This document shows, piece by piece, positions 3,859 through 61,203 of a DNA stretch of 64,000 nucleotides. Position numbers and translations under genes: made by a program. The stretch's first letter is position 1. Each line of letters begins with the position of its first letter. The DNA is from Candidatus Nomurabacteria bacterium GW2011_GWD2_36_14 (GTDB taxonomy: Bacteria > Patescibacteriota > Minisyncoccia > Phycocordibacterales > UBA9973): positions 527,989 to 591,988 of the forward strand of contig LBRL01000001.1 in the NCBI GenBank assembly GCA_000991405.1. The letters run 5' to 3'. The notes under the pieces are model-generated. The model ran no database searches, had not been told where the DNA came from, and worked only from the letters and a program-made list of their open reading frames with translations.

Positions 3859-4016
3859 AAAACGGCTTGCCCGCACACCCATTTTGCTGTAGCTTTTTTG
3901 TTCTGCCGACAGAATATTTACTTATTTTTGTATTTATTACCTAATATATAGAGTATTATTATTCGTTGTATTGAAAAAGCAGAATAACAGCAAAATGGGT
4001 GTGGGGGCTTGTTTTA
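3859..4016. repeat. Long-loop hairpin element family A, copy 1
   Basis: Left arm aaaacggcttgcccgcacacccattttgctgt and right arm acagcaaaatgggtgtgggggcttgtttt are reverse complements (stem about 20-25 bp with one mismatch) around an AT-rich loop of about 100 nt. Related copies are at 13455-13600, 59047-59200 and 61059-61203. Confidence 0.8.
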
Positions 4017-4562: not shown

Positions 4563-4684
4563 TATTGTAAAAAAATAGCGTAGTAAGATTGTTAAAATTA
4601 TTTATCTCGTAGGGCCCCTTTGGGGTAAAGAGGAAATAATTTTAATAATCTTGCGAAGCTTTTTTACAAATATATTTAAAAAAA

Positions 4685-6624: not shown

Positions 6625-7302
6625 TTAAAATTCTAGCCGAGAAGACAATTCCAACCATTTTAAAATTTTCTTCTTAACTACAACAATACTCGATATTATA
6701 CTAATTCCAACTCCATATTGCAACTTTTTTGTTTTTTCTTTACCTTTAATAACTTGAGTTTTATGAAAATTAGAAATAGAGATACCCACTTCACCTGACC
6801 ACTTATTCGTGCATTCATTGGGATCTAAGTCTGGATATATAATTAATGCAATCTTTATATTTTCCTTTGTAATATATAGGTATTTCTCTGCAAATTTTAT
6901 AAATATCTTATGTATATAAAATTCAGAATTACTAACTCTACTCATATTGTTACTTCTTTTATCTCCTTCTCCTGCATAAATCATTAATCCTGCTATAAAT
7001 AAAGGGTCTTTTATAAAGATTTGAAACTCTTTCTCTGCTTCTATTTCTACTTGTTTATATTTATCTGCAAGCATTCTACTTCTGCCTATATGCAATAATT
7101 CCAAACGCTCTGTACTTAATTTAATATTTTTAGTTATATTATTTCTTTTAATATGTGTTGACCATTCTTCATTTCTAAACCAGTCACACAAAGTACTTCT
7201 TGATATATTAATCTCATCTTGAATTTCTCTATATGATTTGCCGTCTCTTCTTAATTTGAATACTAAGTCTTTGTCCTGTCTCATACTAGTACAGTATACC
7301 AC
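6625..7302 (-). CDS. HTH-domain protein with a weak LAGLIDADG-like motif; possible homing-endonuclease-like or mobile-element relic between tRNA genes
   Basis: 225 aa. The N-terminus has a transposase/resolvase-type HTH (LRRDGKSYREIQDEINISRSTLCDWF). The central FIAGLMIYAGEGDK loosely resembles the LAGLIDADG motif. It ends 5 nt from tRNA-Gly(GCC) and lies between tRNA genes. Confidence 0.4.
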   Translation of the reverse strand: MVYCTSMRQDKDLVFKLRRDGKSYREIQDEINISRSTLCDWFRNEEWSTHIKRNNITKNIKLSTERLELLHIGRSRMLADKYKQVEIEAEKEFQIFIKDPLFIAGLMIYAGEGDKRSNNMSRVSNSEFYIHKIFIKFAEKYLYITKENIKIALIIYPDLDPNECTNKWSGEVGISISNFHKTQVIKGKEKTKKLQYGVGISIISSIVVVKKKILKWLELSSRLEF

Positions 7303-7347
7303 AGTGGTTCTGCTTTGAAAAGTAATTAAATAGTGTATAATAAATGT

Positions 7348-7370
7348 ATTAATAATTAATAATTAATAAT
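7348..7370. repeat. (TTAATAA)n heptamer array
   Basis: attaataattaataattaataat immediately upstream of tRNA-Arg. The same heptamer arrays recur at 24301-24396, 42970-43009, 43364-43464, 51050-51158 and 54961-54982. Confidence 0.7.
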
Positions 7371-7442
7371 GCACTCATGGTGAAATGGATATCACGACAG
7401 TCTTCGGAACTGTTATTGGGGGTTCGAATCCCTCTGGGTGCA
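7371..7442 (+). tRNA. tRNA-Arg (anticodon UCG), no encoded CCA
   Basis: Acceptor GCACTCA/TGGGTGC (one G-U pair), D-stem gtga/tcac, anticodon stem acagt/actgt with loop cttcgga giving UCG, T-loop ttcgaat. Confidence 0.75.
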
Positions 7443-12313: not shown

Positions 12314-12410
12314 AATACAAATGTTCTCGAGCGAACCCTTACGGAGGCCGACGGGCCGAGTACGAGCAAAATTTTCAGTAGAAAATTATTGTGTGGTGAG
12401 TCCGAGAATA
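12314..12410. repeat. Repeat family B-prime (variant of B), copy 1
   Basis: gaacccttacggaggccgacgggccgagtacgagcaaaattttcagtagaaaattattgtgtggtgagtccgag; about 90% identical to the reverse complement of 32590-32680. Confidence 0.75.
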
Positions 12411-12427
12411 TTTGTATGGAGTGTTTA

Positions 12428-13420
12428 TTAATTCGAATGAAACTTCTTGTGTACATCTCGAAGTTGCTTGTCTGTAATATGCGTATATATCTGAGTTGTG
12501 GCAATGTTGGCGTGGCCGAGCATCATTTGCACAGAGCGAATGTCGGCTCCATTGGAGAGTAAGTCCGTGGCAAACGAGTGACGAATCACGTGCGGGGTAA
12601 CTTTCTTAGATATTCCAGCTTTTATAGCATAATACTTCACGATTCTCTCTATAGAACGAGGGGTTAATCTGCCATCCTTTCCGGCGGGTGAATTACTTTT
12701 TCCACTATTCCTAGAATACTGTATAAAAAGAGGCTCATCTAAGTCCTTTCTATTCTTTAGATACTCCCGTATTGCATCCTTGGCAGAGTTTGATAAGAAG
12801 ACTACTCGCACCTTTTCACCCTTTCCTCGTATAGAGAATTCATCTTTCGATAAATCCAAGTCTCTATTGAGCGAACAAAGCTCTGAAAGACGAAGGCCTG
12901 TAGAAAAGAATAATTCTAAAATAGCCTTATCTCGCAATACTTTTAAATTCCCATAGGTCAGACCTATGGACTCTATACTTTTACTTTTTGCCCCTAGGTC
13001 CGACCTAGGGGAAGATTCGGGAGCTTTTAAAAGTCTATTCAATTCATCAGTAGAAATAAGGTCGAGCGAACGCTCTTTTATCTTGGCTAAGTCTATCCTG
13101 TCAGGAGCGAGGGAAGTGATAGACCTCTTCATAAGGTATTTAAGGAAAGACCGAAGTGCTATAAGATGATAATTCTGGGTATTTTTCTTAAGCGTTCCTG
13201 ACTGTTGCCCACGAACCTTCACTCCAGGCTGACGATTAAGGAAAAGGCGGAATTCACGAATCTTGTCATCGGTAATATCACTGGGATCACTTATTTTAGC
13301 AAATTCAAAGAATCGACTTATATAGTGATCGTAGTTATTTACAGTCTTCAGACTATTTCCTTTCTCTATTTCTACATGCTCAAGGAATTCTCTTTTTAAT
13401 TGTTCAAGTTGTGTACTCAT
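12428..13420 (-). CDS. xerC: Tyrosine site-specific recombinase XerC/XerD, with an extra linker insertion of about 20 aa
   Basis: 330 aa; the catalytic-domain motifs (GLRLSEL, HVIRHSFATDLLSNGADIRSVQMMLGHANIATTQIYTHI) are present. The linker between LLKAP and RDKAIL is about 18-20 aa longer than usual and is encoded by a palindromic 61-bp element. Confidence 0.9.
   Translation of the reverse strand: MSTQLEQLKREFLEHVEIEKGNSLKTVNNYDHYISRFFEFAKISDPSDITDDKIREFRLFLNRQPGVKVRGQQSGTLKKNTQNYHLIALRSFLKYLMKRSITSLAPDRIDLAKIKERSLDLISTDELNRLLKAPESSPRSDLGAKSKSIESIGLTYGNLKVLRDKAILELFFSTGLRLSELCSLNRDLDLSKDEFSIRGKGEKVRVVFLSNSAKDAIREYLKNRKDLDEPLFIQYSRNSGKSNSPAGKDGRLTPRSIERIVKYYAIKAGISKKVTPHVIRHSFATDLLSNGADIRSVQMMLGHANIATTQIYTHITDKQLRDVHKKFHSN
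12951..13011. repeat. 61-bp nested-palindrome element (family C), in frame inside xerC
   Basis: ccataggtcagacctatgg-actctatacttttactttttg-cccctaggtccgacctagggg. The same architecture and length occur at 54628-54688 (ccataggtcggacctaggg...ccctaggtccgacctatgg). Confidence 0.8.
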
Positions 13421-13454: not shown

Positions 13455-13600
13455 GCCTTGCCCCCACACCTACTTTTTTATAGCTTTTAAATTGTGCCAC
13501 CATTTTATCAAAAATAGTATATTTTTAAGTATAGTCTACATTACTTTTAAGATAAATCCACAAAAAGCACAATAATAAAAAAGTGGGTGTGGGGGCTTGC
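13455..13600. repeat. Long-loop hairpin element family A, copy 2
   Basis: gccttgcccccacacctactttttt ... aaaaaagtgggtgtgggggcttgc; arms complementary with one wobble position; AT-rich loop of about 100 nt. Confidence 0.8.
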
Positions 13601-13634
13601 ATTTCTTCACAACTTGTGCTAATATACGCACACG

Positions 13635-13895: not shown

Positions 13896-13968
13896 CAAAA
13901 TCCTCTGACTTCGGTCAGAGTTTTTTGTTTCAAGATAGAGTATAATAGTGAAGTAAGTAAGCGTAAGT

Positions 13969-14066
13969 AAAAATAGTCTCTGAGAAGGGGCCGGCGGAGG
14001 TCGACGGACCGAGCAATGAGCAAATTTCTAGCAAGAAATTATGCGGACCCTTCGAGGAGAGCTATT
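13969..14066 (+). repeat. GC-rich repeat family B, copy 2
   Basis: aaaatagtctctgagaaggggccggcggaggtcgacggaccgagcaatgagcaaatttctagcaagaaattatgcggacccttcgaggagagctattttt. It follows the short rpsO terminator hairpin ctctgacttcggtcagag (13898-13926). Confidence 0.8.
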
Positions 14067-20378: not shown

Positions 20379-20421
20379 AAAGTATTTGTCTCATAATAAA
20401 CAATAAAATATTAATAAACCA

Positions 20422-20461
20422 AGTGTAACACTTTGCAACGGCCGTTTGTAAGTGTTACACT
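20422..20461. promoter_or_regulatory. 40-bp near-perfect palindrome P1 (candidate operator / insulator)
   Basis: agtgtaacactttgcaacggccgtttgtaagtgttacact; shares the 30-bp core AACACTT-N3-AACGGCCGTTTGTAAGTGTT with P2 at 21094-21133. Confidence 0.6.
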
Positions 20462-21055: not shown

Positions 21056-21093
21056 AAGTCCTAGACTTATATATAATTTATTCAAAATTACTA

Positions 21094-21133
21094 CTTGCAA
21101 CACTTACAAACGGCCGTTTGTAAGTGTTGCAAG
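21094..21133. promoter_or_regulatory. 40-bp perfect palindrome P2
   Basis: cttgcaacacttacaaacggccgtttgtaagtgttgcaag equals its own reverse complement; it lies between the convergent PaaX-like and TrmB-like genes. Confidence 0.6.
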
Positions 21134-21170
21134 TGGGCAAACACAATAAATGGGGTAAATAGTCATTATC

Positions 21171-22644: not shown

Positions 22645-24300
22645 ATGACAAAAGAAAATTGTAAAACTTGTGAGAAGGAGTTTGTGATAAGGGATGAAGA
22701 TCTTGTTTTTTATGAACAAATGAAAACTGTTCCTCCTTTATATTGCCCAGAGTGTAGAATGGCGAGGCGTTTAATGTTTCGTAATGAAAGAACTTTATAT
22801 AAAAGAACTTGTGATTTATGTAAAAAGGATATGGTTACACTTTACACTCCCGAATCACCATATGTTGTTTACTGTAGTAAATGTTGGTGGAGTGATAATT
22901 GGAACCCAAAAGAGTTTGCGTTAGATTATAATCCCAATAAAAAATTCTTTGATCAATATAAAGAATTGCAACTAAAAGTTCCACGTTTAGGAATAATGGA
23001 AATCCAAAATGTAAGAAGTGAATACACAAATGGTTCAGCAGAAAATAAAGATTGCTATTTGGTTTTTGCTTCTGATTTTAATGAAGATTGTTTATACGGA
23101 AGACTTATGCAAAGAAATAAACAGTCGATGGATTGTGCTTTCCTACACGAATCAGAGCTTTGTTATGAGTGTATAGATTGCCGAAAATGTTTCAAGTGTA
23201 TGTATTCTCTACAATGCCAAGATTCTACTGATTTATTGTTTTGTTATAATCTAAAAAATTCAAACAATTGTATTTTCTGCACAAATGGAAGAAATCTTTC
23301 AAATGCAATATTAAATATAAAATATACAAAAGAAGAATATGAAAAGAAAAAGACAGAAATATTAAAAAATTACGAAAGTATTGAACAGGCTAAAAAAGAA
23401 TTTGAAGAATTAAAAAGTAAAACTATTAAAAAATTCGCGACCCAGACGAAATGTCACAATGTCACTGGAGATTATTTACACAACTGCCAAGAAGGAGTGA
23501 GATTATTTGATACATATGATGCAAAAAATTGTTCCTATATGAAAGATATTGATGGTGCAATAGATAGTATGGATTGTAACAATGCTTATGATAAACCAGA
23601 GTTTATATATAATGTAATGGGGGCATTACAAGGAAGTAAGTTAAAAAATTCTGCTTTTGTCTTCTATTGTAATGAAATTGAATACTGTGATAATTGTCAT
23701 CATCTATCAAATGGTATTGGCTGTATTTCTGTACGAAAGGGGAATTACATGATTTTCAATAAAGAATATTCCAAAGAAGAATATATGGAGTTGAAAGAAA
23801 AAATAGAAGAACAGTTTAAAAAAGAAGGAATATTGGGACAATTCTTTTCACCTGAAGTTGCACCATTCGCTTATAATGAATCCTTAATTCATGATTTCTT
23901 TCCTCTATCTAAAGATGAAGCAATTAAAAGGGGTTACAAATGGCAAGACAAAACTACTGGAACCTTTGGTAAAGAAACGATTAAAAAAGGAGAAATTTCT
24001 AACTCTGTAAACGATGTCAATGAAAATATTTTAGATGAAGTATTGATTTGTGAATCATGTAACAAAAATTATAAAATAGTTGAAGCTGAATTAACTTTTT
24101 ATAAAAAAATGGGGCTTCCTATTCCTCATAAAGATTTTGAATGTAGACATGAAGATAGAATGAGGAAAAGAAACGGAATGAAATTGTATCATAGATCTTG
24201 TATGAAAGAAGGATGTGAAAATGAGTTTGAAACAACTTACAGCCCAGACAAAAAAGATGTCATATATTGTGAGAATTGCTATCAGAAGGAAATATATTGA
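22645..24300 (+). CDS. Cys-rich protein with duplicated terminal zinc-ribbon modules
   Basis: 551 aa with more than 40 Cys. N-terminal module: CKTCEKEF-x-I-x-DEDLVFYEQM-x-PPLYCPECRMARRLMFRNERTLYKRTC-x-C. C-terminal module: CESCNKNY-x-I-x-EAELTFYKKM-x-PIPHKDFECRHEDRMRKRNGMKLYHRSC...YCENC. A central run of CxxC repeats lies between them. Confidence 0.6.
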   Translation: MTKENCKTCEKEFVIRDEDLVFYEQMKTVPPLYCPECRMARRLMFRNERTLYKRTCDLCKKDMVTLYTPESPYVVYCSKCWWSDNWNPKEFALDYNPNKKFFDQYKELQLKVPRLGIMEIQNVRSEYTNGSAENKDCYLVFASDFNEDCLYGRLMQRNKQSMDCAFLHESELCYECIDCRKCFKCMYSLQCQDSTDLLFCYNLKNSNNCIFCTNGRNLSNAILNIKYTKEEYEKKKTEILKNYESIEQAKKEFEELKSKTIKKFATQTKCHNVTGDYLHNCQEGVRLFDTYDAKNCSYMKDIDGAIDSMDCNNAYDKPEFIYNVMGALQGSKLKNSAFVFYCNEIEYCDNCHHLSNGIGCISVRKGNYMIFNKEYSKEEYMELKEKIEEQFKKEGILGQFFSPEVAPFAYNESLIHDFFPLSKDEAIKRGYKWQDKTTGTFGKETIKKGEISNSVNDVNENILDEVLICESCNKNYKIVEAELTFYKKMGLPIPHKDFECRHEDRMRKRNGMKLYHRSCMKEGCENEFETTYSPDKKDVIYCENCYQKEIY

Positions 24301-24396
24301 GTAATTAATAATTAATAATTAATAATGTAATATTAAAATGCCTCGGCGTCGCCGAGACATTTTAATTCGTAATTATTAATTATTAATTATTAATTA
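24301..24396. terminator. Terminator hairpin flanked by inverted (TTAATAA)n arrays
   Basis: (taattaa)x4 - ttaaaatgcctcggcgtcgccgagacattttaa - (ttattaa)x4, between convergent genes. Confidence 0.65.
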
Positions 24397-24399
24397 TAC

Positions 24400-27570: not shown

Positions 27571-30318
27571 GTGAATATTATGGACAATTTTTTTGCAAAA
27601 CATAACACTAATGAAGAAAACCCCTCAGCCAAAAATGGTGGCCAAACAGTGAACCCAACAGAAGAAAACAATCCTATTGAAAAAGAATTACCATTGGGAT
27701 TAGAAACAGAAGTTTCCGCCCCTTTATCCAAAAAGATAGATGAATATGACGAAAAGCTAAAAACAGCACGAAAACACAATCCATCTAGAAGGAAATTAAA
27801 GTCCATACTCAATAACCTGAAATCTATTCAAAAATTAGCAATTTTTGGATTTGAATCTGGTCAAAAGGAAGTAAAAGATAGTCCAGAAAATATAAAAGCA
27901 GAGCTGTTAGAAAAAATAGCTAATTTATCTGAGGCAGAAGATTTGAAGGAACTTTCTGAAATTCTGAAAAAGAAGCTGGGGATAAATGAACTAGAAAAAA
28001 TAGATCAAGAAGATAAAAAATTATCAAATAACAACGATACAATATTATTAAATGTTTCAACGTCAAAAAATATGGAAGATAAAAAAATAAGAGCTACAGA
28101 AAAAACAAAAGCAACCAATGCCGAGAACAAAAAGTCTAAAATTTTAACATCTATTGAATCGGCTAGAGAGGAATTGATTGAAAAATTATACGACACTTCT
28201 TTACTTAATTATAAAAAAATTAACTCAATAAAGAATGTATTATGGCAACTAGAAAAAGTTAGGGATGAATTAATTGAGAATAATCTATCAAACATAACTT
28301 CAATTAATATAGACGAATTGCCAGATGATATTAATAAACAAGATATATCAAATATTAATAATCTACTTGTCGGACGTAAGACAAAAACAGAGAATAAAAC
28401 TACAAATAAGATATTGGTTGATTCTGCAAGGGAAGAAGTTTTGAGTGCATTTCCTTCTGTTGAAACACCAGCTACAGTAGAAGAAACTCCAACTGCGACA
28501 AATAAAATTAAATCTTTCGGTAGTATAACAGGGGGTCGCCCTGTATTCTATACAGAAGAGGAATTAAAAGAATTAAATGAAAAAAATACAGAAACATCAC
28601 AGGGGACTATACCTAAAAAGGAAAGTTGGTGGGGGAAAATAGGGCATAAAACTTTCGAGTTCTTTACAAAGAAGCCTACAGTAAATCCAGAAAACCCAAT
28701 TAACTTCATGGCTCCAACTGGAAGCCTTCCTGCTTCTCCTGACCAAAAGATAAATACACCTCCAGAAAAGAAGAAAGTTGCCACAGAAATAGAGGAAGAG
28801 AAAGAAACTGAAAACCCAATTAACTTCATGGCTCCAACTGGAAGTCAGCCATTCTTTCCTAGTGAGAAAGAAGGAATAACCTTGCCACCAGAAAATAAGA
28901 ATACTTCGAAAGTAAATGAGGGAACTGAAAACCCAATTAATTTTCTGGCTCCAACTGGAAGTCATCCATTCTTTTATAATGATCAAGAGGGAATAACTTT
29001 ACCACCAGAAAATAAAGGTAGTGAAAATGAAGCGGGTAATAAAGAAACTGAAAACCCAATTAACTTCATGGCTCCAACTGGAAGTCAGCCGTTTCTATAC
29101 AACAAAGAAGCACCCGTCCAAACTGATGAAACTGAAACAATAAAAGACCAAAAAATACCTTGGAGTGCTAAATCCATAATGTCTAGCTTATACAAAGGTA
29201 TTGATAGTATTCCAGTAGTAAATAGGCTTGTTGCAAAAACAGGTATTGCTTATAATCAATTTTTTATAGATAGGAAAGAAGAAAAATCTGTAAATCTTAA
29301 AGACAAAATGGATACTTTAGATTTAGACCTAAAAAATCTAAGTGGAGCAAAATCAAAGATACAAACTGTTATAGGAAATCTAAAAGATCATGGTGAAGTT
29401 GGATATAACTCATTCCTATTAGAAATAAAAAGAATTGAAGAGCAAGAAAGGAAAATTGCAAACAAGAAAGATACACTTCAGACTAGGATTGAGACAAGGG
29501 AAAATTCAATAAAACTTTATGTAAACAAAAGAGACTCTATTGCAGATAAGATGATAAATAAATATAATGAGAAACTTTCTCCAATAGAAGAAAATCTCAA
29601 AAATTTAGAAACAGAAAAAGATATATTGGATATTTACAGACTTGGCAAAGAAGCAGAAATAGAAGAGATACAGGAAAAAACAAACTTCTTGATAAAACAA
29701 AAAGAATTAGTAATGGAAAGTCTCTTGTTGCGGGGGATTCCGGCTGAAAGAGCAAATGGCCACAAATCTATGAAAAAATTCAATAAAGAATTATCTTCTA
29801 TGAAGAATACAATATCGGATATAAAACACAATCTTGCAAGGAGAGAAACTGCAATAAATGACAAAATTGAAAAAGCTGATAAAAAAGCAAACCCTTATAG
29901 AGACCGCAGAAATGAATTCATACGTGTCACAAATAGAAAACCTATAAAAATAGAACTAAATGAGAGAGTTAATTTGAATGAAAACACCAACAGAGAAGAA
30001 ATGGTAGTACACACAAGAAAAGACGAAGAGGAAATCGAGTCTAAAGAAAACACATCTTCTAAGATCGATATGGGAAGTGATTATTCAGGATATGAAAATA
30101 ATCCTAAAATGTTTGAAGCAATTACAGAATTCAATAAGTATGTGAAATCAATAAGCTCTGATACTTCGTTATTAATAGATGAAGAAAAAATATTTAAGAT
30201 AATAAATCAAGAAACGAGAGTTACTACAAATAAATTAAAAGAAATTATCTTGGCTTACTACAAATTTACAAAGGTCCCAGAAAGTAAGTATAAAAACTTA
30301 GTAGATAATATTAAATAA
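27571..30318 (+). CDS. Large coiled-coil repeat protein with 4x ENPINFMAPTGS repeats
   Basis: 915 aa, Lys/Glu-rich; four tandem copies (units of about 114-126 bp at 28690-29090) encode ENPINF(M/L)APTGS(L/Q/H)P; the C-terminal half is coiled-coil. Confidence 0.6.
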   Translation: MNIMDNFFAKHNTNEENPSAKNGGQTVNPTEENNPIEKELPLGLETEVSAPLSKKIDEYDEKLKTARKHNPSRRKLKSILNNLKSIQKLAIFGFESGQKEVKDSPENIKAELLEKIANLSEAEDLKELSEILKKKLGINELEKIDQEDKKLSNNNDTILLNVSTSKNMEDKKIRATEKTKATNAENKKSKILTSIESAREELIEKLYDTSLLNYKKINSIKNVLWQLEKVRDELIENNLSNITSINIDELPDDINKQDISNINNLLVGRKTKTENKTTNKILVDSAREEVLSAFPSVETPATVEETPTATNKIKSFGSITGGRPVFYTEEELKELNEKNTETSQGTIPKKESWWGKIGHKTFEFFTKKPTVNPENPINFMAPTGSLPASPDQKINTPPEKKKVATEIEEEKETENPINFMAPTGSQPFFPSEKEGITLPPENKNTSKVNEGTENPINFLAPTGSHPFFYNDQEGITLPPENKGSENEAGNKETENPINFMAPTGSQPFLYNKEAPVQTDETETIKDQKIPWSAKSIMSSLYKGIDSIPVVNRLVAKTGIAYNQFFIDRKEEKSVNLKDKMDTLDLDLKNLSGAKSKIQTVIGNLKDHGEVGYNSFLLEIKRIEEQERKIANKKDTLQTRIETRENSIKLYVNKRDSIADKMINKYNEKLSPIEENLKNLETEKDILDIYRLGKEAEIEEIQEKTNFLIKQKELVMESLLLRGIPAERANGHKSMKKFNKELSSMKNTISDIKHNLARRETAINDKIEKADKKANPYRDRRNEFIRVTNRKPIKIELNERVNLNENTNREEMVVHTRKDEEEIESKENTSSKIDMGSDYSGYENNPKMFEAITEFNKYVKSISSDTSLLIDEEKIFKIINQETRVTTNKLKEIILAYYKFTKVPESKYKNLVDNIK

Positions 30319-32563: not shown

Positions 32564-32589
32564 AATAAAAAAAACATTACGCAAAAATT

Positions 32590-32810
32590 ATTCTCGGACT
32601 CACCACACAATAAAATTCTGCTGAATTTTTTGCTCGCACTCGGTCCGTCGACCTGCGTGAGGGTTCGCTCGAGAACATTTTTTACTACATGTTTTTAGAA
32701 AACGTAAACAAATAGTCTTATCAGAGGGGCCGGCGGAGGTCGACGGACCGAGCAATGAGCAAATTTCTAGCAAGAAATTATGCGGACCCTCTGAGAAGAG
32801 CTATTTGTTG
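32590..32810. repeat. Composite of B-prime (reverse) followed by B (forward), a large inverted pair
   Basis: 32590-32680 is the reverse complement of the 12314-12410 type; 32709-32810 is a canonical B copy. The two halves are mutually complementary over more than 25 nt (gctcgcactcggtccgtcgacc / ggtcgacggaccgagcaatgagc). Confidence 0.75.
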
Positions 32811-42567: not shown

Positions 42568-42990
42568 ATGCAATTTAAAGTACCACAATTTATAGATATA
42601 GAAGATAAGATATTTGGTCCTTTCACCTTTCGCCAATTCGCGTACCTTATAGGTGGAGGGGGGATAGTATACGTCTTGTACAGACTACTGCCATTCTGGA
42701 TCAGTATCTTCCTCATACTTCCCATCATAGGCCTGACTATATGCCTAGTCTTTGTAAAGATAAATACTAAACCTTTCGAATACTACCTAGAAGCGGCATT
42801 TACTTACTTCATATCTAGTAAGCTTTATATCTGGAAGCAAAGATTGGTCAAAAAGAGTGACAAGCTAGAAGAGGTAAGTGCCCTTACAACAATGTCCAAC
42901 GTACCCATGCTGACAGAGAATAAACTCAAGGATTTATCGTGGAGCTTAGATATTCAAGACAAGAAAGATAATAAAATAATTAATAGTTAA
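42568..42990 (+). CDS. Small two-TM protein, VirB3-like (ConD/TcpE/PrgI-type) by position and topology
   Basis: 140 aa; two hydrophobic helices (FAYLIGGGGIVYVLYRLL; ISIFLILPIIGLTICLVFV). Its start overlaps the stop of the preceding gene. This is the typical position upstream of VirB4 in Gram-positive T4SS operons. Confidence 0.4.
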   Translation: MQFKVPQFIDIEDKIFGPFTFRQFAYLIGGGGIVYVLYRLLPFWISIFLILPIIGLTICLVFVKINTKPFEYYLEAAFTYFISSKLYIWKQRLVKKSDKLEEVSALTTMSNVPMLTENKLKDLSWSLDIQDKKDNKIINS

Positions 42991-43006
42991 GAATTAATAA
43001 TTAATA

Positions 43007-43357
43007 ATGAAGGGGAATAATATTATAAGGGAAAAAAGTTATAGTTTTAGTCTTAAAATTATTAAGATATATCAAGAATTAACTCAAGAAAAGAAGGAAT
43101 TCATACTATCAAAACAATTAATTCGTTCTGGTACATCTATAGGTGCAAATATCGAAGAATCAACAGGTGCCCAGTCTAAAAATGACTTCATCGCTAAATT
43201 GAGTATCTCGTACAAAGAAACATGGGAAACTCTTTATTGGTTAAGACTTTTGACCGATAGTGGTTTCCTTAATAAGAAACAGTCTGATATTCTTATTTTT
43301 GACTGCGAAGAGTTACTTAAAATACTAGGAGCCATACTAAAAACCTCCAAATCCTAG
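43007..43357 (+). CDS. Four-helix-bundle protein (23S rRNA intervening-sequence protein / Avd-like family)
   Basis: 116 aa; SYSFSLKIIKIY...LIRSGTSIGANIEES...FIAKLSISYKETWETLYWLRL matches the TIGR02436/PF05635-type family. It is flanked by (TTAATAA)n arrays at 42970-43009 and 43364-43464. Confidence 0.7.
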   Translation: MKGNNIIREKSYSFSLKIIKIYQELTQEKKEFILSKQLIRSGTSIGANIEESTGAQSKNDFIAKLSISYKETWETLYWLRLLTDSGFLNKKQSDILIFDCEELLKILGAILKTSKS

Positions 43358-43468
43358 GGTTTCATTATTAATTATTCAATGTGTGATATAATAAAAAGGT
43401 AATTAAAGTGTTTTGATTTATGTTTCTAAATTATTAATTATTAATTCTTAATTATTAATTACTTACCT

Positions 43469-51034: not shown

Positions 51035-51049
51035 TCACCTATTGTAGCA

Positions 51050-51158
51050 TAATAATTAATAATTAAAAATTAATAATTAATAATGTAAAAAACCTAAGCA
51101 AAGCTTAGGTTTTTAGTGTATTGTGTTTAAATTATTAATTATTAATTATTAATTAATT
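51050..51158. terminator. Hairpin flanked by inverted (TTAATAA)n arrays
   Basis: (taataat)n - gtaaaaaacctaagcaaagcttaggttttt - (attatta)n; the same architecture as 24301-24396. Confidence 0.6.
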
Positions 51159-53525: not shown

Positions 53526-54623
53526 ATGAAGTTAGAATGCTCAATAGAAAAAATTAAAAATGCACTCATGATAGTAGATAGAATAACTGGTAAGAATCTT
53601 ACCCTTCCTGTACTGGGATCAGTTCTATGGGTAGCAACAGGTAAGACTCTTAAACTCCGTGCCACAAATCTAAATATAGGTATAGAAATGGAAGTGCCAG
53701 CTAAAATAGAAAAAGAAGGGGTTGTAGCTATAAGAAGTGATATACTCTCGTCTCTATTCTCAGTTCTTTCTGGAGATTCCTTTGTAACTTTTGAACTAGT
53801 AAATGACAACTTGTCTGTAAAAACAAAATCAAATACTATAATCTTGAAAAGTATTCCAAACGATGATTTCCCTACAATTCCACTCATAGAAGGTGAAGTT
53901 CTAAACATACCAGCTAAAAAATTCATAGAAGGAGTTAAGTCTGTATATTATAGTGCTTCTATATCAGATATAAAGCCTGAGATAGGAAGCGTCTATATAT
54001 ATCCAGAAGACGACATGCTTGTGTTTGTGGCGACTGACTCTTTCCGACTTGCAGAAAAGAAGGTGAAAATAAAACAAAAACTTTCTTTTAATGGGATACT
54101 TATACCATTTAAAAACACAGTTGAGATTATTAAGGTCTTGGATGGAGTAGATGGAGATATAAAGATAACATTACAAAAGAATCAAATTTCTTTCTCTTCA
54201 GACAATATATATCTAACATCTAGAATTATAGATGGAGCATTCCCTGACTATAAACAAATAGTGCCCAAAGGAGGAACTACAGAAGTGACACTCTTGAAGC
54301 AAGACTTTCTTTCATCTTTAAAAGTATCAAACATATTCTCTGATAAATTCAATCAAATTACTTTCAATATTAAACCTTCCGAAAAAGTTTTTGAAATAGA
54401 AGCAAAGAATACAGATATAGGAGAAAATATAACATTCCTAGCGTCAGCACTCTCGGGGGAGAATGTAACTCTTAACTTCAACTACAAATATATAGTAGAC
54501 TGCTTCCCATCTATATCTACTGATTCACTTGTACTTGAGTTTAATGGTAGTAATAGGCCTATGATACTGAGACCTATTGGAGATTCCTCGTTTATGTATT
54601 TGGTAATGCCAATGAATAGATAA
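53526..54623 (+). CDS. dnaN: DNA polymerase III beta sliding clamp
   Basis: 365 aa; three-domain clamp; it follows dnaA directly. Confidence 0.9.
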   Translation: MKLECSIEKIKNALMIVDRITGKNLTLPVLGSVLWVATGKTLKLRATNLNIGIEMEVPAKIEKEGVVAIRSDILSSLFSVLSGDSFVTFELVNDNLSVKTKSNTIILKSIPNDDFPTIPLIEGEVLNIPAKKFIEGVKSVYYSASISDIKPEIGSVYIYPEDDMLVFVATDSFRLAEKKVKIKQKLSFNGILIPFKNTVEIIKVLDGVDGDIKITLQKNQISFSSDNIYLTSRIIDGAFPDYKQIVPKGGTTEVTLLKQDFLSSLKVSNIFSDKFNQITFNIKPSEKVFEIEAKNTDIGENITFLASALSGENVTLNFNYKYIVDCFPSISTDSLVLEFNGSNRPMILRPIGDSSFMYLVMPMNR

Positions 54624-54627
54624 TGTT

Positions 54628-54688
54628 CCATAGGTCGGACCTAGGGACAAAAATTTAAAACACAAAAGACCCTAGGTCCGACCTATGG
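54628..54688. repeat. 61-bp nested-palindrome element (family C), copy 2
   Basis: ccataggtcggacctaggg-acaaaaatttaaaacacaaaag-accctaggtccgacctatgg, starting 5 nt after the dnaN stop. Confidence 0.8.
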
Positions 54689-54963
54689 CCCTTAATATTA
54701 TGGATTACAATCATATAAAAAATTATTTAGAAAAGTTTAAAAACCTCCTTTTTACCAAAGAAGAAATATATCAAATAGTTTCTAGGGCAATAGAAGACAA
54801 TATACATCTTAAAATTGAAACCAAAAATATACAAATAAAACCACCTTTTTTATACATAAAAGCCTCTCCATTAGTTCGTAATGAGATAATGATAAATAAA
54901 GAAAAAATCCTGAAAGATATATTACTCTTATCTCCTCAAAGTAATTTAAAAGATATAAGATAA
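54685..54963 (+). CDS. Small hypothetical protein, possibly DUF721/YaaB-like
   Basis: 92 aa immediately downstream of dnaN, where DUF721-family genes commonly sit; the similarity is weak and judged by eye only. Confidence 0.3.
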   Translation: MALNIMDYNHIKNYLEKFKNLLFTKEEIYQIVSRAIEDNIHLKIETKNIQIKPPFLYIKASPLVRNEIMINKEKILKDILLLSPQSNLKDIR

Positions 54964-54988
54964 TTAATAATTAATAATTATAAATACC

Positions 54989-57460
54989 TTAATTAATTGC
55001 CAAATTAGTTGTTGTTTCTCCGGAATTGCCATTTATATCATATCCAACTACACGAATAGTATTGCTATTTGTAATATCGGGAATATCTCTCGGGATAAAA
55101 GAAACAAAATAGGGGGCATTTTTTAATGTTTTTAAATATGTACTATTTATAAACACATCAATTTTTTTAATCTGGGTTTGCCCTGTTGAGCTGACGACAA
55201 AATTAATATCACTATCTTTAGTATAAGAGATCCCAGAAATACCATTGATTGATAATACTGGCTTACTTTGAATAGTAGTATTTGTATAATTTATAATTGG
55301 ATTATTTTGCGCTGAGATGATACCATACTTGGCGTAATTATTAGCCCACCACTTTTGTACTCCATACTCCCAGTTGGTGTATTGTGAGTCGCTCGTTCTA
55401 CCACCAGAAGTGCCACTATTTAATGGATGCTCCTTGTCTAGCCAATACAAAATAGTATGAACATTGGTGACAGAAACTTCTTGTCCACCACTTGGCATAA
55501 ATGTAGCTCCTCCTTGCCAAAAACCACGAAGGACAGGAGGAATGGAAGTATCTATAGGGTCTGGCTTTTCAAAATATTCTACTGGCTTGTCTTTCAAACC
55601 TTCTGACATTACAGCGTTCCATATAGGCCCAGCAAGGGCTGCACCACCCTTTCCCATCGGTTCGTTATTATTGTTACCAACCCAAACCCCAACAGCAAGG
55701 GAGGGTGTGTATCCAATTGTCCATGCATCCTTGTTATCATTTGTCGTTCCTGTCTTCACTGCCACTTCTCTTCCTGGGATATTTAAAATAGAGTTAGCTC
55801 TAAAAGTAGGAGCACGAGCTGCATCATCTGAGAGAATGTCTGATAGGATGTTTGTAGTGTTTGGATTTAGAACTTGGTACTGTCTGTCTTCATACTTTTC
55901 TAAAACATTTCCATTTGAATCTTCAATACTTAGAATCTCGTTGTATGGGTGACGAATACCACCTGTGGCGAAGACACCATAAGCAGAAGTCATATCAAGT
56001 AGAGTCGTTTCCCCACCCCCGATAACAAGAGAAAGTCCATATCGAGTAGGGTCTGTAAGTGTAGTAATACCAAGGTCGTTTGCCATTTTTAAAGAATCTT
56101 TAATACCAACTAAATAAAGGAGCTTAACAGCAACTACGTTTATTGATTGTGCCAGAGCCTGCTTTAGTGTTAATGGGCCCCTGTTGTCGTTATCATAATT
56201 GCTTGGAGTATAACAAGTTGCACTTTTGTGCCCTGCCAAAGGCTTGCCTGTAGGATCACAAGAAGCATTGAATTCAGTTTTAACATCAAACAGGGTTGTA
56301 TCGGCTGTATAACCCTTCTCAAAAGCTGCAGCGTAGACGATAGGCTTAAATGAAGATCCTGGCTGACGTGAAGCTGTCGTGACATTGAAGTTGCCATCGA
56401 CGGTCTTGTCGAAATAATTCCTTGAGCCTACCATGGCCAATATCTGGCCAGTCTTGGGGTCTATCACTACAATAGCAGCATTTTTACCTTTCCAATTCTT
56501 TTCATTTTCTTTTGATTTTTCTAAAGCTATTTCCTCGGATTTTTTTTGAAGATTATAATCAAGAGTTGTAATAACTTTCAACCCACCATCTTCAAGTGCA
56601 TTTATACCATACTTATTTTCTAAATAATCTTTTACAAAGAAGACAAAGTGAGGGGCAGCGATATTCATAGGTCGTTCAGGCTGGAAGACGACAACTTCAT
56701 TTTTTGCTTTTGTATAAGTATTCTCATCTATGAACTTGAGGTCTAGCATTCTTTTCAAGACTAGATTCTTTCTCTCGTCCAACCTATCCTTGTTCTTTCT
56801 ATATGGAGAATAATAAGTTGGACCATTGGGAATCGCCGCCATATAAGCCGACTCAGCTAAAGTTAATTCCAAAGGCTTCTTATCGAAGAAGGCTTTAGAT
56901 GCTTCTTCGACACCATAAATATTTCCACCATAAGGAGCTTCGTTCAAATATAGGGTGAGGATGTCATTTTTACTCATAATCTTCTCAAGCTTGATAGCCA
57001 AGATCCACTCCTTCATCTTTCTTTTGATAGTTACTTCAGAAGTGAGTAAAGTATTCTTGATAAGTTGCTGGGTTATAGTTGAACCTCCTGTAACCCTTTT
57101 ACCTGTAAGTTTTGCCCAAATAGTTCCACGAATAATTGAACTTATGCGGATTCCTTTGTGTTGGTAGAATTCTCCGTCTTCTATGGCAACTGTGGCGTTC
57201 TTGATATTGGTGCCTATCTCTTCGTAAGGTATAACGGTTCTCTTGATATTGTCGTGGACATTGTATAAGAGGATCTCGCCAGTACGGTCGTATATCTTCG
57301 TTGAACTCTGTATCTTTCTTTCAGTAAAGAGCTTAAAGTCTGGTAATTCCAAGGTACTAACCCACACAACAACAAGCCCAGTCAATATTATTCCAACCCC
57401 AATTAATAAAAATAATGCGTTTTTAAGTATTTTTAATGACATAAATGAATGTTTCTTCAT
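54989..57460 (-). CDS. Class A penicillin-binding protein (bifunctional glycosyltransferase/transpeptidase) with a C-terminal extension
   Basis: 823 aa; N-terminal TM; GT51 motifs (EDGEFYQHKGI, GGSTITQQL); transpeptidase SxxK (SSFKP), SxN and KTG (KTGTT) motifs. Confidence 0.9.
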   Translation of the reverse strand: MKKHSFMSLKILKNALFLLIGVGIILTGLVVVWVSTLELPDFKLFTERKIQSSTKIYDRTGEILLYNVHDNIKRTVIPYEEIGTNIKNATVAIEDGEFYQHKGIRISSIIRGTIWAKLTGKRVTGGSTITQQLIKNTLLTSEVTIKRKMKEWILAIKLEKIMSKNDILTLYLNEAPYGGNIYGVEEASKAFFDKKPLELTLAESAYMAAIPNGPTYYSPYRKNKDRLDERKNLVLKRMLDLKFIDENTYTKAKNEVVVFQPERPMNIAAPHFVFFVKDYLENKYGINALEDGGLKVITTLDYNLQKKSEEIALEKSKENEKNWKGKNAAIVVIDPKTGQILAMVGSRNYFDKTVDGNFNVTTASRQPGSSFKPIVYAAAFEKGYTADTTLFDVKTEFNASCDPTGKPLAGHKSATCYTPSNYDNDNRGPLTLKQALAQSINVVAVKLLYLVGIKDSLKMANDLGITTLTDPTRYGLSLVIGGGETTLLDMTSAYGVFATGGIRHPYNEILSIEDSNGNVLEKYEDRQYQVLNPNTTNILSDILSDDAARAPTFRANSILNIPGREVAVKTGTTNDNKDAWTIGYTPSLAVGVWVGNNNNEPMGKGGAALAGPIWNAVMSEGLKDKPVEYFEKPDPIDTSIPPVLRGFWQGGATFMPSGGQEVSVTNVHTILYWLDKEHPLNSGTSGGRTSDSQYTNWEYGVQKWWANNYAKYGIISAQNNPIINYTNTTIQSKPVLSINGISGISYTKDSDINFVVSSTGQTQIKKIDVFINSTYLKTLKNAPYFVSFIPRDIPDITNSNTIRVVGYDINGNSGETTTNLAIN

Positions 57461-59046: not shown

Positions 59047-59200
59047 GTGGAAAACCCCCACACCCACTTTTTTATTGCTTATATATTGTGCCATTCTTTA
59101 TAAGATGTAAAATAGTCTTATTAATATAGTTAATATTGTTTTTTTACTTAAAATTACAATAAGCACAATTATAAAAAAGTAGGTGTGGGGGAAAACCCCC
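59047..59200. repeat. Long-loop hairpin element family A, copy 3
   Basis: ggaaaacccccacacccactttttt ... aaaaaagtaggtgtgggggaaaaccccc; immediately downstream of ruvC on the minus strand. Confidence 0.8.
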
Positions 59201-59701: not shown

Positions 59702-59726
59702 TAGTGTATAAATTTTTTTTCATTAA

Positions 59727-59825
59727 AATAGCTCTTCTCAGAGGGTCCGCATAATTTCTTGCTAAAAATTTGCTCATTGCTCGGTCCGTCGACCTCCGCC
59801 GGCCCCTCTGATAAGACTATTTTAA
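59727..59825 (-). repeat. GC-rich repeat family B, copy 4 (reverse orientation, downstream of ruvB on the minus strand)
   Basis: aaaatagctcttctcagagggtccgcataatttcttgctaaaaatttgctcattgctcggtccgtcgacctccgccggcccctctgataagactatttt is the reverse complement of the B consensus. Confidence 0.8.
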
Positions 59826-60833: not shown

Positions 60834-61058
60834 TATTTTCTTAGTATGCTATACTCTCCACAGAAATTTGATACGTTTAATTATAGCATTTTCGCGAAGA
60901 GAACATAAATCTCTAAGCAATCGGCCCCGTGCTCTATATATGTGCATAGGACGTCTTGGTTTATATTTATATTTACTGTGGCTATCCTGTAATCATATGT
61001 TACTTTGCTAGCGCATGCTTCCAAAGGATTGTTTAGAGATTTATGTTTTTTTAATTTT

Positions 61059-61203
61059 ACCCGCACACTCAACATGCCGTAGCTTTTTTGTTCTGCCTAC
61101 AGAATTTTTATTTAAAATTTATATTTTTTACTTAATATAATAAGAGTATTATTATATTTTATTTTGAAAAAGCAGAATAACGGCATATTGAGTGTGCGGG
61201 TTT
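61059..61203. repeat. Long-loop hairpin element family A, copy 4
   Basis: acccgcacactcaacatgccgtagcttttttgttctgcc ... ggcagaataacggcatattgagtgtgcgggttt; its internal sequence is highly similar to copy 1; its right arm abuts the pilB stop codon. Confidence 0.8.

Follow-up and report, generated by a model that had tools for sequence, protein, structure and literature searches.

The palindromic insertion found in frame within xerC is probably a REP doublet (REPIN-like) belonging to a low-copy family of the Patescibacteria, the units of which bracket RAYT-type genes (HUH/Y1, IS200-like). The stretch of Nomurabacteria DNA analysed here, 64 kb long and referred to as the window, contains two 61-bp doublets of the 19-bp palindrome CCMTAGGTCNGACCTAKGG, one inside xerC (12951-13011) and one next to dnaN (54628-54688). 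Direct reading and a pattern count thereby upheld the earlier note, made on the same DNA, which had described two 61-bp palindromic copies with 19-bp arms and an AT-rich centre, the second of them right after dnaN. The 19-mer pattern occurs at four sites in the 64 kb, all within the two doublets, and gives 8 matches when both strands are counted versus 0.03 expected in shuffled sequence. A chance origin of the palindromes was rejected. Likewise, GGTCNGACC occurs 4 times in the window versus 0.22 expected. Both doublets fold much better than shuffled sequences, whether as DNA or as RNA (z -5.6 to -8.6).

The palindrome has the hairpin sequence CCTAGGTCNGACCTAGG, and the consensus of the REP unit is C[C/A]TAGGTCNGACCTA[G/T]G. 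Their near-perfect symmetry around a loop of 1 nt makes the units unusual among REPs, and neither a GTAG nor a CGTC tag was found in the units and their aligned flanks; symmetry and missing tag both count against a REP-RAYT assignment, as does the low copy number (4 units in 64 kb). When Rfam covariance models were run against the window, only four tRNAs reached gathering scores and the doublets were unmatched. A CRISPR was rejected, there being no array.

The first doublet lies in a xerC/xerD-type tyrosine recombinase gene of 330 aa (12428-13420, minus strand) and consists, as read directly, of CCATAGGTCAGACCTATGG, a 22-nt AT-rich spacer and CCCTAGGTCCGACCTAGGG(G). That is, the REP unit at 12951-12969 reads CCATAGGTCAGACCTATGG on the plus strand and encodes (S)IGLTYG on the coding (minus) strand, the unit at 12992-13011 reads CCCTAGGTCCGACCTAGGGG on the plus strand and encodes SPRSDLG, and the spacer between them (12970-12991), whose A-rich coding strand is GCAAAAAGTAAAAGTATAGAGT, encodes AKSKSIES. 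Together with its flanks the doublet could form a long hairpin on the sense strand (12948-13013, minus strand) by pairing TTCCC with GGGAA (RNA, -35.6 kcal/mol, z -6.2). The insert is translated without a stop as SPRSDLGAKSKSIESIGLTYG, residues 137-157, in agreement with the in-frame reading proposed before, and the catalytic R, K, HxxR and H..Y motifs of XerC are intact. An intein or intron was rejected, the insert being too short and translated through, and so was a XerC/dif binding site, given the wrong geometry of the units and the presence of copies in many unrelated genes.

The earlier note had placed the insert in the linker that joins the core-binding domain to the catalytic one and had put the lengthening at about 20 aa; the location has to be revised, and the length holds for one of two comparisons. 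The Pfam Phage_integrase match picks up again at model position 21 after the insert, and the predicted structure has helix 124-136, a coil and helix 156-173. The insert therefore sits in the loop that connects helices one and two of the catalytic domain and not in the inter-domain linker proper. The AlphaFold model was built from 44 close orthologues and, at a mean pLDDT of 60.5, is usable for secondary structure around the insert only. Relative to distant orthologues, whose loop is in the basal 21-aa state established from a metagenome scan of xerC orthologues, the XerC loop is indeed 20 aa longer, but relative to the nearest insert-free orthologues it is only 12 aa longer.

Orthologue alignments support the expectation that the insert is lineage-specific. 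The orthologues share the gene order NYN gene, rpsO, xerC, exonuclease III gene. Those at 82-94% identity mostly have 311 aa and no insert, while one sub-clade has the doublet and one orthologue (P0030) has a single unit only; in the metagenome scan about 6 of the 71 readable xerC loci carry REP-type inserts. The xerC insert of L117 has retained its palindromy through three two-sided changes, and some orthologues hold a different, AAGCAAGGCTT-type palindrome in the same loop. That the XerC loop is a hotspot following the REP type of the lineage is put forward as a hypothesis, since no AAGCAAGGCTT-type palindrome was detected elsewhere in the examined flanks of the contigs whose xerC holds that type. 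No residual palindrome was seen at a second XerC hotspot of the window, where 7 aa are gained (12638-12727).

The second doublet is intergenic, located between the stop codon of dnaN (53526-54623, plus strand) and a downstream gene of 87-92 aa, the true start of which is probably the ATG at 54700. It begins 4 nt past the dnaN stop codon (54623) and reads, on the plus strand, CCATAGGTCGGACCTAGGG (left unit, 54628-54646), the 23-nt A-rich spacer ACAAAAATTTAAAACACAAAAGA (54647-54669) and CCCTAGGTCCGACCTATGG (right unit, 54670-54688), which is identical to the left unit's reverse complement. This site is filled in one related sequence (L057) and empty in another (L006), and comparison of the filled site, ...GAATAGATAATGTT[61 bp]CCCTTAATATTATGG, with the empty one, ...GAATAAATAAAATAATGG, revealed no flanking direct repeat that would correspond to a target-site duplication. 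No target-site signature was found, which counts against the REP-RAYT reading. For each of the two window sites there are relatives that have the doublet and relatives that lack it.

Further copies of the motif, for which the earlier note proposed a genome search, are present at unrelated sites in related genomes. Nine distinct doublets, drawn from seven sequence sets (the window and six other genomes or metagenome contigs), align to CCATAGGTCGGACCTAGGG-RCAAAAA..TAAAAA..AAAAGA-CCCTAGGTCCGACCTATGG, with unit starts 39-42 nt apart and a conserved A-rich spacer of 21-23 nt between the inverted units. Although they come from at least six different sites, the doublets have arms, polarity and spacer ends in common. 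For example, the spacer ends of the xerC doublet (RCAAAA...AAGA) are also found in doublets at other loci, and the entire 61-bp unit including the spacer ends recurs in several genomes at unrelated places, namely at two xerC sites, in uvrB, behind dnaN and in front of a gene that probably encodes ribosomal protein S8 (rpsH). In a genome scan for the palindrome, 76 of the 115 loci returned were labelled Patescibacteria (98 units), and in these the stems reach past the search pattern (mean 11.1 bp). One complete genome, RAAC4_OD1_1 (AWSN01000001.1), contributes at least 7 units at 5 loci. Stems average 8.2 bp in the 31 matches from other phyla, which look like chance matches. The palindrome is thus strongly over-represented in Patescibacteria genomes, where one 17-mer is common to several lineages.

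By a crude stop-to-stop measure, about 40% of the units lie inside long ORFs, and all of the 20 examined there read as [PH]RSDL[GWC]. In-frame copies were identified in uvrB, atpG, mnmA, cysS and pepN of related genomes; the decorated proteins, confirmed with Pfam as UvrB, ATP synthase gamma subunit, MnmA, CysRS and M1 aminopeptidase, always carry the insert at domain junctions.

The link to a transposase comes from the related genomes. A RAYT-like gene is present at 8 of the 115 palindrome loci, and the canonical palindrome brackets such a gene in L040, L045, L100, L102, L029 and L016, its distance from the HUH codons being about 290 nt on the upstream side and 430 nt on the downstream side. 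Other palindromes flank the RAYT-like genes of L009, L082, L120 and L122. Overall, 9 of the 11 RAYT loci have flanking copies at fixed positions on either side of the gene; of the other two, L120 shows a clear copy only on the upstream side, and L121 is too close to the end of its contig to be judged. RAYTs of one family are therefore bracketed by differing palindromes (at least four types), so the repeat type changes together with the gene.

In the RAYT-like proteins the NHFH and YIHLNP motifs are invariant. The score against Pfam Y1_Tnp was 23.1 bits (cutoff 23), and the match to NCBIfam REP_Tyr_transpos (E 5e-12) stayed below the cutoff of that family. A PDB search with a single RAYT sequence returned no match, a PDB profile search gave TnpA_REP (4ER8) as the sole match, a weak one (E 0.34), and the same structure was the top Foldseek match (E 2e-5) of a low-confidence model (pLDDT 58 and 60 for the structural models). 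The score under the NCBIfam cutoff and the low confidence of the models count against the REP-RAYT reading. Moreover, tblastn with two RAYT-like proteins detected no RAYT-like gene in the 64-kb window, the only match being to the palindrome-encoded peptide; this, too, counts against that reading.

The palindrome is also found inside the RAYT ORF itself, in frame and directly after the HUH motif. Among the best 120 homologues of the RAYT, all have S-P-x-x-x-x-G-type peptides at this position, and the in-frame copy was checked at the DNA level at six loci. Such a copy would be expected if the repeat were an orphan palindromic element of the Rickettsia kind, spread by recombination, by another transposase or by template switching at hairpins, with RAYT genes as a frequent target just like the housekeeping genes. 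The low copy number, the lack of a RAYT in the window and the fact that no dedicated transposase is reported for CGTC-type REPs in the part of PMC3733652 used here fit that alternative as well. We nevertheless regard it as unlikely, as passive targeting predicts neither the fixed positions of the flanking copies on both sides of the gene, i.e. the classical REPtron layout, nor the co-variation of palindrome type and RAYT.

An alternative that we judge improbable is that the palindrome is a functional hairpin selected by the host, i.e. a terminator, an mRNA-stability element or the site of a symmetric DNA-binding protein, with the in-frame copies as by-products. Many single units in Patescibacteria lie between an A-run and a T-run, as in bidirectional terminators, and on the T-rich strand a unit plus spacer scores as terminator-like; in all doublets whose context is known, the sense strand is the A-rich one. 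Selection on the hairpin would also account for the retained palindromy of the L117 insert and for the conservation of both window copies at orthologous sites. However, a terminator would be harmful within essential ORFs (xerC, uvrB, atpG, mnmA, cysS), and neither window copy has a U-run or an intrinsic terminator on its sense strand, the terminator-like site at the dnaN copy being on the antisense strand only. The REPtron layout and the recurrence of whole doublets at unrelated sites would also be left unexplained, whereas secondary use of a REP as terminator or stabiliser is compatible with the REP doublet interpretation too.

Patescibacteria are believed to rely on DNA uptake, and in Neisseria and Haemophilus the uptake signals, too, are found as inverted pairs behind genes and within genes for genome maintenance. 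An uptake signal sequence, which would fit the inverted pairs downstream of genes, the copies inside uvrB and xerC and the shared 17-mer, is nonetheless very improbable, as the density is only about 1-6 units per 100 kb (about 1.4 around xerC in relatives) against roughly one per kb for known uptake sequences, and as the association and co-variation with RAYT genes would be unexpected.

Under the favoured REP-RAYT interpretation, the doublet would have spread in trans by the action of a RAYT on single-stranded DNA hairpins, a mode of action established for E. coli TnpA_REP and the IS200/IS605 transposases. The xerC copy would have survived while selection removed all other insertions. It appears to occupy a loop that is variable and probably disordered, between two helices where the catalytic domain begins, and would be read in the sole frame that avoids the TAG triplets inside CCTAGG/CCATAGG. 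In this orientation the spacer would encode Lys/Ser-rich residues and the sense strand would be free of a hairpin followed by a U-run. The combination of a permissive loop and the only stop-free frame would be the reason why the doublet was kept in xerC. Both window copies look old, and were probably inherited vertically rather than acquired recently. The dnaN copy may have an additional role, either as a hairpin in RNA or in terminating antisense transcription.

A RAYT gene with its flanking REPs is known as a REPtron. Classical REP families have hundreds of copies. The window family resembles the REPIN/REP-RAYT systems, REPs, BIMEs and REPtrons of Pseudomonas and E. coli (Bertels & Rainey 2011, PMC3116915; Bertels et al. 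2017, PMC5581495) in having short palindromic units, arranged as inverted doublets with a short spacer that could form one long hairpin, in that a single RAYT (HUH/Y1) gene has these units on its flanks, here in related genomes, and in its vertical persistence at orthologous sites and the co-variation of repeat type with RAYT. It differs from them in its very low copy number, its near-perfect symmetry with a 1-nt loop and no GTAG or CGTC tag, the share of units inside long ORFs (about 40% by the same crude measure) and a distant, longer RAYT subfamily (about 226-245 aa), often with its own REP in frame. The host phylum differs too, and no report linking REPs with Patescibacteria was found in the literature consulted.

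In-frame REP dimers encoding 20-30 aa have been described in other phyla, and intragenic REPs were found enriched in replication and repair genes including uvrB and explained as neutral extensions of loops or linkers (Di Nocera et al. 2013, PMC3733652, as far as the sections used here go). The intragenic doublets studied here share with those dimers the in-frame insertion, the encoded length, the occurrence in replication and repair genes such as uvrB and the interpretation as neutral. In the same sections, the repeats bear the GTAG or CGTC tags that define the two described REP superfamilies and belong to Proteobacteria, Opitutus, Rickettsia and other groups, and neither a xerC case nor a copy inside a RAYT gene is to be found.

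The earlier note had also likened the xerC copy to Rickettsia palindromic elements (RPEs). The parallel is apt for the phenomenon, i.e. a palindromic repeat in frame within functional protein genes of reduced genomes, but not for the family. RPEs, compared here by description only, are Rickettsia-specific; in the available sections of PMC3733652 the intragenic elements RPE-4 and RPE-6 are assigned to the CGTC repeats, for which no dedicated transposase is reported, and RPE-1 elements are described as longer insertions. The window element, by contrast, is a 61-bp doublet from a Nomurabacteria host, without a CGTC tag and of a RAYT-associated family. An RPE is thus not the best classification, because the units form an inverted doublet of 19-bp REP-like palindromes, because the palindrome brackets RAYT-like genes in relatives, as opposed to the CGTC repeats of that source, and because the insert is positioned in a catalytic-domain loop and not in an inter-domain linker. 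The element is also similar to MITEs, being small and non-autonomous with inverted ends and hairpin potential, but it differs from them by the lack of a target-site duplication at the dnaN site, by ends that are themselves palindromes and by an associated enzyme of the HUH/Y1 single-strand type instead of a DDE transposase.

In-frame insertion of REP repeats is thus already known from other phyla, and the window alone would amount to a modest result: an element of a known kind, inserted long ago and tolerated. What is new is the Patescibacteria host, the REP type that has neither a GTAG nor a CGTC tag, and the RAYT genes with their own REP in frame. REPINs and RAYTs are thought to be among the few mobile elements that persist vertically for very long, and a version in tiny, gene-dense genomes would extend their known range. 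Patescibacteria genomes have almost no intergenic space, and the elements would therefore persist within essential proteins, among them XerC, UvrB, ATP synthase gamma subunit and MnmA, which would show how selfish DNA is accommodated in genomes of this kind. The inserts are also a source of indel variation in Patescibacterial proteins that can mislead alignments, domain calls and structure prediction.

More tentatively, Patescibacteria could host an undescribed REP-RAYT branch, in which a tagless, near-perfect palindrome is routinely tolerated in frame in essential proteins, the RAYT carries its own cognate REP after the HUH motif, and hotspots of the XerC-loop type hold the REP type of the lineage. 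Host-gene hotspots holding the lineage's own REP type would therefore imply re-insertion or concerted evolution at a fixed site. The REP copy within the RAYT gene co-varies with the REPs flanking the gene, which hints at self-targeting or autoregulation and offers a concrete handle on RAYT-REP co-evolution.

Both 61-bp doublets described in the earlier note, and four matches to their 19-mer pattern, were recovered when the sequence was re-read. The copy in xerC (12951-13011) consists of CCATAGGTCAGACCTATGG, a 22-nt AT-rich spacer and CCCTAGGTCCGACCTAGGG(G), and the dnaN-proximal copy (54628-54688) of CCATAGGTCGGACCTAGGG, a 23-nt spacer and CCCTAGGTCCGACCTATGG. Each 19-mer arm is itself palindromic and centred on GGTCNGACC, and in the dnaN-proximal doublet one arm is the exact reverse complement of the other. 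The four sites in 64 kb (6 units per 100 kb) compare with 0.03 expected from shuffled sequences, and the four occurrences of GGTCNGACC with 0.22 expected. As single strands, both doublets fold far above shuffled controls (z -5.6 to -8.6), as a pair of small hairpins or as a single long one.

The xerC doublet lies within a minus-strand ORF of 330 aa (12428-13420), where it is translated as SPRSDLGAKSKSIESIGLTYG (residues 137-157). Pfam assigns the host ORF an N-terminal SAM-like domain (residues 11-99) and a Phage_integrase domain (residues 161-318); its product is a tyrosine recombinase of the XerC/XerD type, and the catalytic motifs are intact with the insert present. The identical protein is on record for Candidatus Nomurabacteria, which places the organism in the Patescibacteria (candidate phyla radiation). 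The earlier note had placed the insert in the linker between the two domains. That location is not borne out: the Pfam match to the catalytic domain picks up at model position 21 directly after the insert, and in a low-confidence AlphaFold model (pLDDT 60.5, and below 50 for residues 142-156) residues 137-155 are a coil flanked by helices 124-136 and 156-173. The insert instead sits in the loop joining helices one and two of the catalytic domain.

The order NYN gene, rpsO, xerC, exonuclease III gene is kept across the compared loci, which must therefore be true orthologues. Most of the 120 closest XerC proteins (82-94% identity) are 311 aa long, and the insert-free forms have a short loop between LLKAP and LRDKA, e.g. 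LVENISGKKDDTLKI. Among these 120 proteins, the doublet is found in a sub-clade (SPRSDLGAKSK..LGPTYGNLK), a single unit in one protein (SPRSDLGAK-KSLRDKA), and related or decayed versions of the insert in others. The DNA of seven xerC orthologues, in which the insert states were verified codon by codon, agrees with this distribution, and the insert is thus lineage-specific, as had been proposed. Its proposed length of about 20 aa stands relative to the basal state (+20 aa; the segment measures 41 aa in the window gene vs 21 aa in distant orthologues of 62-71% identity, from 71 further metagenome xerC loci), but not relative to the nearest insert-free relatives, over which the gain is only 12 aa. 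There is a second hotspot in the loop after FIQYSRN, where some orthologues carry another full doublet (HRSDLGTKNKNSRTLGLTYG; for example at 4248-4307 of L123 and in protein P0018) and where the window XerC has 7 additional residues with no recognisable palindrome. At the first hotspot, other lineages harbor different palindrome types. The first arm in locus L117 is CTCCTAAGCAAGGCTTAGGAG; relative to the canonical arm it has three two-sided changes, all of which preserve pairing; in L119 and L126 the complementarity between arms (17/19 by our own count) exceeds that within arms (6/9 per arm); and L130, L158 and L196 show still other hairpins. These differences could stem from repeated insertions into this site or from change in place.

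The dnaN-proximal doublet starts 4 nt past the dnaN stop codon. It occupies the same position in another Nomurabacteria genome (L057; DnaN 86% identical to that of the window), whereas in L006 (DnaN 69% identical) only ~8 nt separate the dnaN stop from the downstream start. The empty junction in L006 reads ...GAATAAATAAAATAATGGATTAT and the filled one in the window ...GAATAGATAATGTT[61 bp]CCCTTAATATTATGGATTAC, with no target-site duplication between the two. Comparison with L006 and L057 also suggests that the small gene following dnaN (54685-54963), which has no Pfam match, probably starts at ATG 54700 (MDYN...) rather than at 54685 within the palindrome.

Scanning 596 Gb of genomes, one per species, with the pattern CMTAGGTCNGACCTAKG returned at least 115 loci, and further copies of the motif do therefore exist in related genomes. 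Among the matches listed, 76 loci with 98 units are labelled Patescibacteria (Nomurabacteria, Paceibacterota, Parcubacteria, Kaiserbacteria and MAGs labelled Saccharibacteria), and their stems are longer than the search pattern (mean 11.1 bp). The 31 listed matches from other phyla are single and minimal (mean stem 8.2 bp), lie mostly within ORFs, and look like the chance matches expected of a 17-mer in 596 Gb. Unit density is low, ~1.4 per 100 kb in the xerC regions of relatives, and many intergenic single units are flanked by an A-run and a T-run, resembling bidirectional terminators. Nine distinct doublets, belonging to seven sequence sets, were found at six or more different sites (xerC sites 1 and 2, uvrB, downstream of dnaN, upstream of a probable rpsH, and others). 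They have their arms, polarity and spacer ends (RCAAAA...AAGA) in common, which indicates that the repeated unit is the entire 61-bp doublet. Separately, the RAAC4_OD1_1 genome (L047) has two copies of a second palindrome type (GTCCAGGCCTTGCCTGGAC) near xerC, at 4601-4619 and 6698-6730, which resembles the GGCAAGGCC-core REPs flanking other RAYTs (REP-associated tyrosine transposases).

Insertion within genes follows a frame logic. TAG is met in two of the three frames of CCCTAGGTCNGACCTAGGG; the open frame reads PRSDLG (HRSDLW in the CCATAGG/CCTATGG variant) and was used by all 20 units examined within long ORFs of Patescibacteria ([PH]RSDL[GWC]). Owing to the 41-nt offset in the doublet, the second unit is read in the LGPTYG frame, kept open solely by the CCTATGG outer end, which the family consensus shares. 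Wherever the context of a doublet is known, the sense strand is the one with the A-rich spacer, coding for Lys/Ser-rich residues. On the opposite strand, a unit with the T-rich spacer after it has a terminator-like score, unlike the sense strands. [quoted passage not shown]

Of the 115 loci among the matches listed, 8 contain an ORF of 220-245 aa that encodes the motif W.LMPNHFH; chance would give well under one (our own estimate for a single-copy gene in ~1-Mb genomes). These RAYT-like proteins match Pfam Y1_Tnp at the gathering threshold and, below the curated cutoff, the NCBIfam REP-associated tyrosine transposase model (E 5e-12), and some sources annotate them as RayT. A PDB profile search gave a weak, sole match to 4ER8 (E. 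coli TnpA_REP); the same entry was the top Foldseek match (E 2e-5) of a low-confidence model (pLDDT 58), ahead of IS200/IS605 transposases. In six loci (L040, L045, L100, L102, L029, L016) the RAYT gene has the canonical palindrome on either side, ~290 nt ahead of the HUH codons and ~430 nt past them. Different palindromes flank the RAYTs of this family in L009, L082, L120 and L122 (TTGCGTTAGG..CCTAACGCAA, CACAGGCAAGGCCTGTG, CCCCAAGGCCNGGCCTTGGGG, CCCCAAAGCAAGGCTTTGGGG). These loci are arranged as REPtrons, and the repeat type goes with the gene.

Directly after the HUH strand, a short peptide of variable sequence (e.g. SPRSDLG, SHMSDMW, SPKQGFG, PRPGLG, SPIPGIG, SPRCHLG) is present in each of the 120 closest homologues of the L102 RAYT, most fitting S-P-x-x-x-x-G. 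In the six loci where this could be checked, the peptide is encoded by an in-frame palindrome, 20-24 nt past the HUH codons, whose type matches that of the REPs on either side of the gene (L040, 6066-6088; L045, 6058-6080; L100, 680-704 in minus-strand orientation; L102, 1839-1865; L120, 2264-2288; L122, 2268-2290). RAYTs without this palindrome (L009, L016, L082) have a loop shorter by 4-7 aa. No RAYT-like gene occurs within the 64-kb window; we infer that the window's genome encodes one, and mobilisation would be carried out by RAYT acting on single-stranded DNA.

REPs within genes have been described by Di Nocera et al. [quoted passage not shown] The XerC insert is presumably neutral as well. 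The same authors recognise two REP superfamilies, GTAG-tagged and CGTC-tagged, and place the intragenic Rickettsia RPE-4 and RPE-6 in the CGTC class, which has no dedicated transposase; the Patescibacteria units have neither tag. Low copy number is not disqualifying here, since the 16-mers flanking some RAYT groups occur only ~12-14 times per replicon (Bertels et al. 2017; PMC5581495). The window element is quite probably a REPIN-like REP doublet of a RAYT-associated family, fixed long ago in a permissive XerC loop and in the intergenic region 3' of dnaN. What the data show directly is the repeat family and its enrichment in Patescibacteria, occupied and vacant sites, the frame logic, and, in relatives, the REPtron arrangement. 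Elements of this kind are already known; what is new is the phylum, the REP type and the REP copy within the RAYT gene. A literature search retrieved no paper linking REPs, or RAYTs with REP families, to Patescibacteria, which is absence of evidence only.

Other repeats occur in the window. An intergenic element of ~100 nt, with an almost invariant core AGAGGGGCCGGCGGAGGTCGACGGACCGAGCAATGAGCAAATTTCTAGCAAGAAATTATGCGGACCCTCTGAG, has four copies (1948-2046, 13968-14066 and 32708-32806 on the plus strand, 59725-59823 on the minus strand). Its consensus fold has 34 pairs, 8 with two-sided compensatory changes, from only four copies; it matched no Rfam family and is a candidate for a structured RNA or hairpin element present in several copies. 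Four MITE-like elements of ~140 bp (3867-4013, 13458-13601, 59055-59191, 61057-61206) have inverted termini CCCCCACACC...GGTGTGGGGG, one copy lying between xerC and rpsO. Two 95-nt inverted repeats, 88% complementary, are situated directly past the xerC stop (12319-12413) and next to a copy of the ~100-nt element (32586-32680). A perfect 42-bp palindrome, ACTTGCAACACTTACAAACGGCCGTTTGTAAGTGTTGCAAGT, is found at 21093-21134, with related copies at 21076-21151 and, ~650 bp off, at 20419-20459. AT-rich palindromic blocks of TAATTAATAATTAATAAT occur at 7337-7376, 24289-24398, 42968-43464, 51044-51155 and 54949-55001; one set is ~800 bp upstream of dnaA (51951), and the blocks near dnaA could be part of the replication origin region. 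Finally, a long ORF contains 3-4 tandem coding repeats of 117-123 bp with 62-93% identity (28690-29138).
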